In this document: piece by piece, positions 1 to 3,928 of the stretch | Layout of the letters: the number at the start of each line of letters is the position of its first letter | How positions within the stretch are numbered: position 1 is the first letter of the stretch | Source: Escherichia coli | GTDB lineage: Bacteria > Pseudomonadota > Gammaproteobacteria > Enterobacterales > Enterobacteriaceae | Reading direction: 5' to 3' (one strand) | Length of the DNA stretch: 3,928 nt | NCBI RefSeq assembly: GCF_003334315.1 | Contig: NZ_QOWR01000102.1 | Position numbers and translations under genes: made by a program | The notes under the pieces: model-generated | What the model was told of the DNA's origin: nothing | What the model saw: the letters and a program-made list of their open reading frames with translations, nothing else | The model's database searches: none

Positions 1-492
1 ATTCCAGCCGAACGCGAACCTCTGCCTGGCGTAAAATTCTCACACCGGGGCTCCAAGATGCGAACACCACATCTTGTGCCACTCAGCAAACAGGCTGTAG
101 CCATACTGACAGAACTTCAGACATGGGCAGGTGAAAATGGTCTGATATTTACGGGAGCACATGACCCGCGTAAACCAATCAGTGAAAACACCGTAAATAA
201 GGCACTGAGGGGTATGGGATATGACACAACCCAGGATGTCTGTGGGCATGGGTTCAGGGCGATGGCGTGCAGTGCGTTAATAGAATCAGGTTTGTGGTCC
301 CGTGATGCAGTTGAACGTCAGATGAGCCATCAGGAACGCAATGGTGTACGTGCTGCTTACATTCATAAAGCAGAACATCTGGAAGAACGCCGACTGATGT
401 TACAGTGGTGGGCCGATTTTCTGGATGCAAACAGAGAAAAATTTATCAGTCCATTTGAATATGCAAAGATTAATAATCCATTAAAACCGTAA
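1..492 (+). CDS. int: P4-type tyrosine integrase (site-specific recombinase), C-terminal catalytic portion; 5' end lies upstream of the window
   Basis: Frame 1 is open from base 1 (IPAEREPLPGVKFSHRGSK precedes the listed Met at 58) to the TAA at 490-492. The translation carries the tyrosine-recombinase box II pattern HGFRAMACSALIESGLW and the catalytic Tyr context VRAAYIH, plus the C-terminal LMLQWWADFLD tail I recognise from P4-like (IntA/IntB-type) integrases. Only ~164 aa are visible, so the gene is partial in this window. Confidence 0.85.
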   Translation: MPAEREPLPGVKFSHRGSKMRTPHLVPLSKQAVAILTELQTWAGENGLIFTGAHDPRKPISENTVNKALRGMGYDTTQDVCGHGFRAMACSALIESGLWSRDAVERQMSHQERNGVRAAYIHKAEHLEERRLMLQWWADFLDANREKFISPFEYAKINNPLKP

Positions 493-537
493 TCCTCCCG
501 GGCAAATGCCCGGGAACTACTCCAGGATTATTTTTTT
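493..537 (+). terminator. Candidate intrinsic terminator downstream of the integrase gene
   Basis: Perfect hairpin CCCGGG-caaatg-CCCGGG (497-514), flanked by a complementary outer pair AATCCT (491-496) / AGGATT (524-529), followed by a T7 run at 531-537. The 9-nt spacer between inner stem and outer pair makes this a non-canonical geometry. Confidence 0.4.
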
Positions 538-660
538 GTTAAAAAAGGCAAAACGATATTAACTGATGTATTAAATGTTTACCGGATTGCTCCCTGCAGG
601 GGGATTATCAGAATCCGCAGTTATTCGTTATTTATATATATTCAATAAAAAGCAACATCA

Positions 661-694
661 TAAAAAATCCCGCACTCACAGGGTGATGCGGGAT
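661..694 (-). terminator. Candidate intrinsic terminator for the minus-strand phosphoethanolamine transferase gene
   Basis: 12-bp GC-rich stem with one bulge (667-679 pairs with 683-694, 3-nt loop). On the minus strand it is followed directly by a T6 run (complement of the A6 run at 662-667). It lies ~120 bp downstream of the minus-strand stop at 812-814. Confidence 0.45.
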
Positions 695-814
695 AACTGA
701 CGTAAGGAATGCTGCCGGGATTTGGTGGTCCCTTGTGCTGATATGAATACAGATTCTATTCTATACAGAATCCTTTTCAGTACAAGAGACTGTATTACTG
801 TTTGCCATATATGA

Positions 815-2281
815 TTACCTGTGGTCCGGAAGAATCAGAGGCTGCGGTTTCAGACTGTCTGCCGGCACATTTTTCTCTCCGTTAAAAACCATAACGGGTT
901 CATTATCTTCGTCTGTCAGCGGATTGAATGGCAGTATATTTTCGGTACGAATACCGGTCAGCCACTGAAAAATGCCTGCGAAATGACGGGCACTGATTTT
1001 TCTGCTGACGGACTGATGAGACGTGATGTCACTGGCGGTAATAATCAGGGGAACGCTGTAGCCTCCTTGTATATGGCCATCATGATGAACAGGATTAGCA
1101 CTGTCGCTGACCGACAGACCATGGTCAGAAAAGTAAAGCATGGCAAAATGACGGGAGTGCCGGCGAAGGATACCATCAAGCTGACCGAGAAAGTTATCCA
1201 GTTTACTGATGCTGGCGAGGTAACAGGCAATCTTTCGGGGATACTGCTCCAGGTAATGATTCGGCCAGGAGTTAAGTCGGTCACACGGATTCGGATGAGA
1301 GCCAATCATGTGCAGGAATATCACCTTCGGAGAGGATTTATCCGCCAGTGCACGTTCTGTTTCCTGTAACAACAACATGTCATCCGTTTTACGGGAAGCA
1401 AAGCTGCCTTTCTTGAGGAAAACGGTATGCTCCGCATCAGAAGCAATAACAGAGATGCGTGTATCATGCTCCCCCAGTTTTCCCTGATTGGATATCCACC
1501 ATGTGCTGTATCCTGCTTTTGCTGCCAGCGCCACCACGTTGTTGCCGGAGTCAGGGTTCTGCTCATAGTCATAAATCAGTGTCCGGCTCAGGGAAGGTAC
1601 GGTACTGGCTGCTGCCGATGTATAGCCGTCAATAAATAAACCGGGAGCCGTATTCAGCCATGGTGTGGTTGGCACGGGATAGCCATATACCGACATATAA
1701 TCCCTGCGCACACTCTCACCAGTAACGATAACAATCGTGTCATACAACGGTGTTCCCGGCAGGATTTTCCAGTTGTCAGCCCCGTGCTGACTCAGTTGTT
1801 TATAACGCTGCATTTCACGCAATGTGTCAGTTGTTCCCACAACAATTCCTTTAACCATCCGCAACGGCCAGCTGTTTACAGAGCATAATACGAATAGCAG
1901 CAGTGCCAGCCAGTTACGGTGACCGCGGTGGTGTGTCCGCCAGAAAATCACCATGAATACCAGAATCGCGGCACTGACCAGAAAATGATAAACAGGAATC
2001 ATCCCGGTAAACTCTGCAGCCTCATCAGCCGTGGTCTGCAGCAACGCGACAATAAAACTGTTGTTGATTTTACCGTACGTCATACCCGCAGGCGCATACA
2101 GTGCACAACAGAACAGAAATAACAGCACTGTAATGGATGTGAGGGTATTTCTGTGTGCAAGGAGAAGAAGGAGAAACAGAAGCAGCACATTTCCTGTGGC
2201 ATTCTTCTCAGTGTATCCGCATGCAATTGTGATTATTACGGAAATGGATTTGCCCCTATATTTCCAGACACCTGTTATCAC
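815..2281 (-). CDS. Phosphoethanolamine transferase family membrane protein (YhbX/OpgE/EptA-like, sulfatase-fold), 5'-truncated by IS2 insertion; likely pseudogene
   Basis: 488-aa ORF with an N-terminal hydrophobic region (several predicted TM segments, e.g. [47 protein letters not shown]) followed by a periplasmic-type catalytic domain. Motifs align with the EptA/MCR pattern as I recall it: [13 protein letters not shown] (nucleophile position), [12 protein letters not shown] (cf. HQMGNHGPAY) and [10 protein letters not shown] (cf. MLYVSDHGES). The first 12 codons (2245-2281), including a GTG start, lie inside the IS2 right inverted repeat, so the native N-terminus (an estimated 50-100 aa including TM1) is missing. 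Native sequence spans 815..2244. Confidence 0.8.
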
Positions 2282-2285
2282 TTAA
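2245..2285. repeat. IS2 right terminal inverted repeat
   Basis: TGGATTTGCCCCTATATTTCCAGACACCTGTTATCACTTAA matches the ~41-bp IS2 right inverted repeat recalled from the canonical element, with one difference I can see (C for T at 2271). Confidence 0.75.
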
Positions 2286-3161
2286 CCCATTACTGGCCTG
2301 CTGCCGCAGATATTCCCGTGGCGAGCGATAACCCAGTGCACTATGCGGATGCCATTCGTTATAATGCTCGAACGCCTCTGCAAGGTTCTTTGCTGCCGTT
2401 AACCCGTCTGGTTTAGGCATGATACTGATGTAGTCACGCTTTATCGTTTTCACGAAGCTCTCTGCTATGCCGTTACTCTCCGGACTCCGCACCGCCGTGT
2501 TCTTCGGTTCAAGCCCCAACATCCGGGCAAACTGCCGTGTTTCATTAGCCCGGTAGCATGAACCATTATCCGTCAGCCACTCTACTGGAGACGCCGGAAG
2601 CTCGTTGCCGAAGCGGCGTTCCACCGCTCCCAGCATTACGTCCTGTACTGTTTCACTGTCGAAGCCGCCCGTAGTGACTGCCCAGTGCAGTGCCTCACGG
2701 TCACAGCAGTCCAGCGCGAACGTGACTCGCATTTTTTCTCCGTTATCACAGCGGAACTCGAACCCGTCAGAGCACCATCGCTGATTACTTTCTTTCACGG
2801 CCACTTTGCCAGTATGTGCCCGTTTCGATGGCGGTACAGCGGTTTTTCGCTCAAGCAACAGCGCATTCTGGCGCATGATCCGGTAAACACGTTTGGCATT
2901 GATCGCAGGCATACCATCAAGTTCGGCCTGTCTGCGAAGCAGCGCCCATACCCGACGATAACCATACGTGGGCATCTCTCCGATAACATGGTGTATACGG
3001 AGAAGCACATCCGTATCATCTGAGTGACGGCTGCGGCGACCATCTTTCCAGTCATCGGTTCGTCTGAGAATTACGTGCAACTGCGCACGCGACACCCGGA
3101 GACAACGGCTGACTAAGCTTACTCCCCATCCCCGGGCAATAAGGGCGCGTGCGCTATCCAC
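2256..3161 (-). CDS. insD: IS2 transposase OrfB (InsD), DDE integrase-like catalytic domain
   Basis: 301-aa [37 protein letters not shown]...NRCLEI, near-identical to the canonical IS2 InsD I recall, with scattered substitutions. GTG start at 3159-3161 immediately after the A6G slippery site. In IS2 this frame is normally expressed as an InsC-InsD fusion by -1 frameshifting. Confidence 0.9.
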
Positions 3162-3484
3162 TTTTTTGCACGCCCGTATTCAACAGCTTCTTTAAGGAGT
3201 TCATTTTCCATCGTTTTTTTGCCGAGCAGGCGCTGGAGTTCTTTAATCTGCTTCATGGCAGCAGCAAGTTCAGAGGCAGGAACGACCTGCTCTCCTGCGG
3301 CCACAGCAGTAAGACTTCCCTCCTGGTATTGCTTGCGCCAGAGAAATAACTGGCTGGCTGCCACACCGTGTTGCCGGGCAACAAGGGAGACCGTCATTCC
3401 CGGTTCAAAACTCTGCTGAACAATAGCGATCTTTTCCTGTGTAGTACGCCGTCTGCGTTTCTCCGGTCCTAAGACATCAATCAT
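3119..3484 (-). CDS. insC: IS2 transposase OrfA (InsC), helix-turn-helix DNA-binding protein
   Basis: The listed ORF (3119..3529) begins with 15 codons inside the IS end. The canonical InsC start is the internal Met of [47 protein letters not shown]..., placing the start codon at 3482-3484 and giving 121 aa. It overlaps insD by ~43 bp, as in IS3-family elements. Confidence 0.85.
3161..3167 (-). promoter_or_regulatory. Programmed -1 ribosomal frameshift slippery heptamer (A AAA AAG) at the insC/insD overlap
   Basis: The minus strand reads GCAAAAAAGTGGATAGC; the A6G heptamer sits in the insC/insD overlap where IS2 and other IS3-family elements are known to frameshift to make the OrfAB transposase. 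Confidence 0.55.
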
Positions 3485-3529
3485 CTGCTCTCCAATGACT
3501 AGTCTAAAAACTAGTATTAAGACTATCAC

Positions 3530-3928
<399 letters not shown>

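Follow-up and report, generated by a model that had tools for sequence, protein, structure and literature searches.

An IS2-truncated, probably inactive yjgX-type phosphoethanolamine transferase gene in a tRNA-linked island of Escherichia coli

INTRODUCTION

In Escherichia coli K-12, yjgX (b4575) is an annotated pseudogene, what is left of a putative phosphoethanolamine transferase gene. It lacks about 104 N-terminal codons and converges with a P4-like integrase gene, intB, that adjoins the tRNA gene leuX. Island-borne phosphoethanolamine transferases of the YjgX/YhbX type have previously been reported at pheU, pheV, and selC (PMC6174562). We found no functional study of YjgX. Papers mention the gene only in lists of island genes, as a false-positive control, or because the pseudogene served strain engineers as a site of integration; in the single phenotypic report that we located, the K-12 ΔyjgX mutant was a false positive in a screen with the defensin HNP-1 (PMC4808223). 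Here, we describe a further damaged copy of this gene. It lies on the draft contig QOWR01000102.1 of assembly GCA_003334315.1, the whole of which (3,928 bp) was analyzed and is called the window below. Like the K-12 copy, it converges with a P4-like integrase gene of the kind that adjoins a tRNA gene. Unlike the K-12 copy, it lacks only 23 codons, and the right end of the insertion sequence IS2 stands in their place. We conclude that this copy of yjgX is probably dead or dying, a pseudogene truncated by IS2 whose product is probably inactive.

Judged by sequence, the closest characterized K-12 paralogue of YjgX is OpgE (YbiP), which acts on osmoregulated periplasmic glucans. The two proteins are alike over their full length, including the transmembrane (TM) domain (30% identity, 241 bits, 8e-78), as well as in size (527 versus 499 amino acids) and in their catalytic motif residues. 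However, 30% identity is all that they share in sequence, and there is no synteny between opgE and yjgX. The match to YhbX is confined to the catalytic domain. EptC/CptA, EptA, EptB, and MCR-1 to MCR-13 belong to the same superfamily and have the same architecture, and their Thr nucleophile and metal ligands align with those of YjgX, but they are only 16 to 22% identical to it.

IS2, of the IS3 family, is able to form hybrid promoters at its target sites (PMC9330008, PMC3299598), and activation by IS2 through an outward −35 in its right inverted repeat (IRR) has been described for ampC and acrEF (PMC9330008). As in those cases, the window gene points away from the IRR of IS2 and is oriented in the same way as the transposase genes. 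The window differs from them in that the insertion lies within the coding region and the IS2 copy has no left end.

RESULTS

The window allele of yjgX begins inside IS2

The open reading frame (ORF) under study encodes 488 amino acids on the minus strand (815..2281) and starts with GTG. This start codon, at 2281, lies 37 nt inside IS2, so that the first 12 codons are derived from IS2. The final base of IS2 is the A of codon 13 (ATT), and by chance it recreates the native Ile24. The right end of IS2 (reverse complement ...GGGGCAAATCCA) terminates at 2245, and native sequence runs from 2244; homology to intact alleles ceases exactly at 2244/2245. The original prediction, made from the letters of the window, had placed the GTG in the IRR and had counted 12 IS2-derived codons, and the alignments confirm both to the codon.

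We searched positions 493..2300 by megablast against 5,426 complete E. coli genomes. Outside the insertion sequence, identity was 97.8 to 98.7% among the matches listed, and single-piece matches ended at window position 2244-2245. The intact alleles in these genomes are 1,500 nt long, encode 499 amino acids, and are annotated "phosphoethanolamine transferase" (positions 4323-5822 of locus L001 and 4321-5820 of locus L002). The native part of the window allele is 97% identical to them in amino acid sequence. In both protein and DNA alignments, the first 23 native residues, MNIRKLFCPGDTPRILLFLFFFV, are absent from the window allele, and the 12 codons from the IS2 repeat are found instead. Lost with the insertion are the first 69 nt of yjgX, the 5′ untranslated region (UTR), and the native promoter region. 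Neither a 5′ fragment of yjgX nor the outer membrane protein (OMP) gene that lies upstream of intact alleles was found within 10 kb in six truncated loci (L004 to L009). Since the upstream region is absent from the window and from its relatives, the native promoter is gone. The remaining 476 native codons are uninterrupted.

Family and identity of the window gene

The window product had been assigned to the sulfatase-fold phosphoethanolamine transferases, and our searches agree. Pfam Sulfatase (PF00884) matched residues 182-435 (1.5e-36), with a weak match to EptA_B_N (6e-5). The best solved-structure relatives by Foldseek were EcEptC (periplasmic domain), MCR-1, and NmEptA, each with a probability of 1.00. 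The catalytic domain superposes on that of EcEptC with a TM-score (template modeling score) of 0.72 normalized to the target, and the model of the whole protein corresponds to MCR-1 and NmEptA. The alignment columns of residues E189, T227, H329, D386, H387, and H400 (window numbering) are invariant in the family or conserved to at least 90%. These residues align with the catalytic motifs of EcEptC and MCR-1 (Glu, Thr nucleophile, His, and Asp-His), and all of them are present in the window protein.

The best NCBIfam matches were to CptA, a generic lipid A phosphoethanolamine transferase model, EptA, EptB, and several MCR models, all of them far under their cutoffs. The scores were 108.1 versus a cutoff of 404 for CptA, 60.4 versus 561 and 39.5 versus 660 for EptA, and 48.1 versus 493 for EptB. 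The models for MCR-3, -4, -5, -7, -9, -10, and -13 gave 19.8 to 35.5 bits versus cutoffs of 1075 to 1250. By these scores the window gene is not a colistin-resistance (mcr) allele, in agreement with the original prediction.

Compared with K-12 yjgX, the window gene is 91.3% identical over 1,268 nt, and the flanking integrase and intergenic region are 83 to 84% identical to those of K-12. Because of this 91.3% identity and because both genes occupy the same place beside a P4-like integrase gene, we take the window gene to be the yjgX orthologue. This narrows the earlier description of it as a YhbX/OpgE-like paralogue. By homology to EptA, MCR, and OpgE, the intact enzyme would be an OpgE-like inner-membrane phosphoethanolamine transferase with five TM helices, its N terminus inside and its sulfatase-fold domain in the periplasm. 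With the Thr nucleophile and a Zn site, it would be expected to transfer phosphoethanolamine onto a glycan or lipid acceptor in the periplasm, phosphatidylethanolamine being the donor.

The truncation falls within the first transmembrane helix

AlphaFold modeled the intact protein with a mean predicted local distance difference test (pLDDT) score of 86.4. The model consists of five TM helices (TM1, residues 14-31; TM2, 39-53; TM3, 57-80; TM4, 108-127; TM5, 135-145), a bridging helix (149-176), and then the catalytic domain, and the pLDDT of the TM1 helix is 77-93. This five-helix architecture agrees with the full-length structures of NmEptA and MCR-1 in the Foldseek comparison. In an alignment of homologues (A3), a hydrophobic segment spans the position of the cut and is preceded by a short basic N terminus in 20 of 21 sequences (33 to 96% identity). 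Relatives at 33 to 66% identity retain a hydrophobic helix at the position of the cut.

In the light of this model, IS2 would cut TM1 in half, between residues 23 and 24, and leave four helices of the five-helix N-terminal domain. The strongest Kyte-Doolittle peak of the intact protein (2.94, residues 15-33) is abolished in the chimera, in which 19-residue windows within the first 30 residues reach no more than 1.0. The original prediction had stated that TM1 is lacking and that the gene is more likely a pseudogene. The hydropathy peak is indeed lost, but TM1 is bisected rather than wholly removed; the loss of half of TM1 speaks for the pseudogene.

The chimera has four of the five TM helices and a basic N terminus (KYRGK). 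Following the positive-inside rule, the catalytic domain is therefore predicted to be cytoplasmic, or the protein to be misinserted. Either outcome would be incompatible with a periplasmic transferase.

The truncated block occurs at both pheU and pheV

At least 80% of the yjgX region was present in 1,451 of the 5,426 complete E. coli genomes, and the IS2/yjgX junction was present in 0 of the 5,426. The exact 488-amino-acid protein is WP_242818786.1, which NCBI and UniRef list from E. coli only; GCA_030716655.1 is one assembly that carries it. The density of insertion sequences and the lack of the junction in the complete genomes had pointed to Shigella as the source, which we rejected in view of this E. 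coli-only listing. The block made up of the integrase 3′ end, truncated yjgX, IS2, and IS1 (window 1-3851) was found at 99.94 to 100% identity on six contigs from separate draft assemblies of E. coli, the window (L008) being one of the six. The neighbors of the block are yqgA-speC in L004 and L005, which places it at pheV, and yjdC-dsbD in L006 and L007, which places it at pheU. Because the same block is found at both sites, the IS2 insertion predates the spread of this island variant between pheU and pheV. The tRNA-Phe gene is identical at the two sites, and the integrase region differs by about 0.6 to 1.3% between them. These data suggest that, once IS2 had inserted, the island was transferred or recombined between pheU and pheV.

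YjgX paralogues of about 511 amino acids at 52 to 53% identity, annotated "lipid A phosphoethanolamine transferase," are found on large plasmids of E. coli and Salmonella (clusters P0019, with 1,955 member sequences, and P0020). The plasmid search returned nothing closer to YjgX than this.

The IS2 junction has no consensus promoter

The outward −35 element of the IRR forms the promoter at the IS2 minicircle junction only with a spacer of exactly 17 bp (PMC3299598). From its spacing, we infer that TGGAAA in the IRR is this −35 element. The hexamer 17 nt past it is TTCCGT; unlike the ampC and acrEF activations, the window junction has no −10-like hexamer at the 17-nt spacing. A minus-strand promoter scan near 2245 found no sigma-70 match of at least 9/12, and the best match in a relaxed scan was 7/12. 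A hybrid promoter at the IRR junction was rejected, since 7/12 was the best score and nothing stood at the mandatory 17-nt spacing. The suggestion in the original prediction that IS2 could supply a hybrid promoter thus holds as a general fact about IS2, but not at this junction, which has no usable −10 at the required distance.

The signals for translation are also poor. The GTG start is directly preceded by an in-frame TAA, has only a weak GGG as an upstream ribosome-binding site, with no clear Shine-Dalgarno sequence, and lies in a frame different from that of the overlapping orfB codons.

The indigenous IS2 promoter, P_IRL, begins at IS2 nt 48 (TGAT, nt 48-51), and the site of the OrfA repressor is at nt 39-48 (PMC3299598). 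Read-through from this weak extended −10 promoter is conceivable and would be the only plausible source of a transcript across the truncated gene.

Weighing the pseudogene against the alternatives

We propose that IS2 inserted after codon 23 of yjgX, which would have removed the native promoter, the 5′ UTR, the start codon, and the first half of TM1. The upstream OMP gene, which resembles hra and hek, was probably lost in later rearrangements associated with IS1 and IS21. The 488-amino-acid ORF would exist only through a chance in-frame GTG that follows a stop codon in the right end of IS2, and the product of any IS2 read-through transcript that was translated would most likely be inactive. 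We consider it likely, on this account, that the yjgX copy of the window is dead or dying, that it is not expressed, and that its product would be misplaced in the membrane if it were made. Several observations weigh on the other side. The 476-codon frame is open, and all of the catalytic motif residues are intact. Compared with the nearest intact allele, the window allele has 16 synonymous and 5 nonsynonymous codon differences, though these are possibly older than the insertion. The NCBI pipeline annotates WP_242818786.1 as a normal protein. The OrfA repressor site is almost entirely deleted and the extended −10 of P_IRL is kept, and de-repressed read-through is therefore conceivable; the terminator scan found no terminator between orfB and the junction. 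The clean frame is weak counterevidence because the truncated copies show next to no differences among themselves and are too young to have decayed. As a test of continued selection, dN/dS is uninformative, since the truncated copies hardly differ and the differences from the intact allele could be older than the insertion.

It is unlikely that the chimera is expressed and active. It would have to be transcribed by IS2 read-through that IS1 has de-repressed, or translated by coupling to orfB, and the residual stretch of TM1 with the basic N terminus would have to insert adequately. The open native frame with its catalytic residues and the retained P_IRL −10 next to the deleted OrfA site are what one would expect in that case. 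In addition, the orfB stop (2256-2258) lies 23 nt past the GTG, so that ribosomes cross this region, and the block is unchanged at pheU and pheV in several genomes. However, the 11 hydrophobic residues left of TM1 are too few for the bilayer, and hydropathy there remains under 1.0. The literature calls P_IRL weak (PMC3299598), the GTG is without an evident ribosome-binding site and out of frame with orfB, and the identity among the copies reflects recency rather than selection. A bolder form of this idea holds that the IS1-clipped IS2 is a fixed, constitutively de-repressed promoter cassette that drives a chimeric YjgX′ with the basic N terminus encoded by IS2, and that this enzyme stays membrane-anchored and active, maybe with an altered topology or acceptor, and is kept as useful cargo while the island moves between pheU and pheV; we regard this as very unlikely. 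We give hardly any credence to the view that IS2 lies upstream of an intact gene, with the true start after 2244 (for example GTG at 2188 or ATG at 2083), the 499-amino-acid form over-extended, and only the promoter lost. An AGGA does precede the in-frame GTG at 2188, and one distant cluster representative (P0012, 471 amino acids) begins later. Nevertheless, the N-terminal hydrophobic helix is conserved in place and in character at 33 to 66% identity, TM1 is modeled with confidence, and a periplasmic domain needs an odd number of TM helices, as in NmEptA and MCR-1. Initiation at 2188 or 2083 would do away with TM1, or with TM1 to TM3. The original prediction had raised such a downstream start, and the homologues do not bear it out; 23 native residues are missing. 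Finally, there is practically no chance that the junction is an assembly artifact in which reads of IS2 and of yjgX were wrongly joined. As could be the case for an artifact, the window spans a whole contig of 3,928 bp that lies between repeated elements, but other, independent assemblies have the identical junction, among them contigs of 320 kb, 122 kb, 56 kb, and 26 kb.

Neighboring genes and intact islands

The features of the window are listed in Table 1. The integrase gene and yjgX are convergent, with the 3′ end of the former at 492 and the stop codon of the latter at 815. The spacer between them is 322 nt long and contains two terminator-like hairpins, one per convergent gene. The transferase gene had been described as directly downstream of the integrase gene, which is not the case in terms of transcription. 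An Rfam scan of the window found no family at the gathering score. The window integrase is 98.9% identical to the 421-amino-acid integrase beside tRNA-Phe in L001, and full-length copies have the domains Arm-DNA-bind_3, Phage_int_M, and Phage_integrase.

Table 1. Features of the 3,928-bp window
Feature	Position	Strand	Remarks
P4-like tyrosine integrase gene, 3′ part	1..492	+	C-terminal 163 codons; contig start falls within the gene; NCBIfam PRK09692 integrase domain, 1.9e-24
Terminator-like hairpin and T-run after integrase gene	489..540	+	RNA fold −22.7 kcal/mol, z = −4.25
Terminator-like hairpin and T-run about 120 nt past the transferase stop	661..694	−	Terminator scan match 682..669; fold −17.2 kcal/mol, z = −3.79
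Native yjgX-family remnant	815..2244	−	Codons 24/25-499 and stop; TM2-TM5, bridging helix, complete sulfatase-fold catalytic domain
IS2-derived 5′ end of chimeric ORF	2245..2281	−	GTG + 12 codons; inside IRR; the last part of IS2 orfB overlaps it in a different frame
IS2 remnant	2245..3529	−	IS2 nt 47-1331; IRR about 2245-2285; orfB 2256..3161; orfA 3119..3484
Extended −10 TGATAGTCT of indigenous IS2 promoter P_IRL	3520..3528	−	Motif found at 3528, directly against the IS1 end
IS1 fragment	3530..3851	−	Right end and 3′ part of transposase gene; NCBIfam transpos_IS1, 4.3e-19; 94.8% identity to IS1A in L001
IS21-family (IS100-like) element, terminal 77 nt	3852..3928	+	Inserted in the IS1 fragment; contig ends there

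Intact islands lie at a tRNA-Phe gene (beside yqgA, so pheV) or at a tRNA-Leu gene (beside ahr, like K-12 leuX). Their order is tRNA gene, integrase gene on the plus strand, and then, on the opposite strand, the transferase gene with a gene for a 246-amino-acid OMP directly upstream. The OMP gene (5982-6722 in L001, 5994-6605 in L002) is on the same strand as yjgX, and the two likely form an operon. The adhesin genes hes, hek, and hra1 occur near the integrase genes of pathogenicity islands at pheV and leuX (PMC5539235, PMC6174562). Judged by its position in these published islands, the OMP is probably an Hra/Hek/Hes-type adhesin; its match to an NCBIfam adhesin model was below threshold. In K-12, opgE also adjoins a gene for a small beta-barrel OMP (ompX, convergent), which may be a coincidence or a recurrent pairing.

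The IS2 remnant and nested insertion sequences

Both IS2 proteins score over their NCBIfam cutoffs (TnpB, 704 versus 597 bits; TnpA, 275.8 versus 229). The IS2 remnant is 95.3% identical to nt 47-1331 of K-12 IS2K and 98.3% identical to the IS2 copy in L002. Its A6G frameshift window is intact and its IRR is present, and the left inverted repeat (nt 1-46) is absent, with IS1 in its place. From what is known of IS2 transposition (PMC3299598), the remnant would be expected to be immobile. The IS1 fragment is interrupted at 3851/3852 by the IS21-family element, whereas in L004 IS1 runs on uninterrupted. The IS21-family segment is a 100% match to the sequence directly upstream of the IS21-family transposase gene pair in pN373.

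K-12 carries IS2 in the same small region, with a difference in position: IS2K is in the intergenic region on the 3′ side of yjgX, and the window IS2 is inside the 5′ end. In L003 (K-12; region 2682-5292), IS2K stands in the opposite orientation between intB and the yjgX 3′ end, at the counterpart of window 731-736. The K-12 gene has an unrelated 5′ deletion with its end near the equivalent of window position 2001. The decays of yjgX in K-12 and in the window are independent, and IS2 has struck this small region at least twice in independent events.

Other insertions were seen in the truncated loci. A site in the spacer between the integrase gene and yjgX, at window 638-645, holds a 1.25-kb IS3-family element with TGAAGTGG... 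ends in L004 (11644-12890). The same site in L005 holds a 3.5-kb insert (5088-8604), one part of which is a group II intron reverse transcriptase (RVT_1, GIIM). In L004, a 320-kb contig, the cluster of insertion sequences upstream of truncated yjgX adjoins a BREX-type defense locus with an MmeI-type methyltransferase, PglZ, and BrxL with a Lon domain (region 1-6873).

DISCUSSION

As a probable IS2-truncated pseudogene, the window copy of yjgX carries little biological weight: it adds one more accessory gene inactivated by an insertion sequence to those of tRNA-linked islands in E. coli. It is a routine product of such insertion, and its protein is already in public databases. The entry WP_242818786.1, named "phosphoethanolamine transferase," should carry a flag that marks it as a 5′-truncated IS2 fusion, and screens for mcr-like genes should leave the window ORF uncounted. 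The YjgX family itself is common, OpgE-like, and usually paired with an hra/hek-type adhesin gene. Therefore, it is an intact allele, not the remnant, that is the worthwhile target for study.

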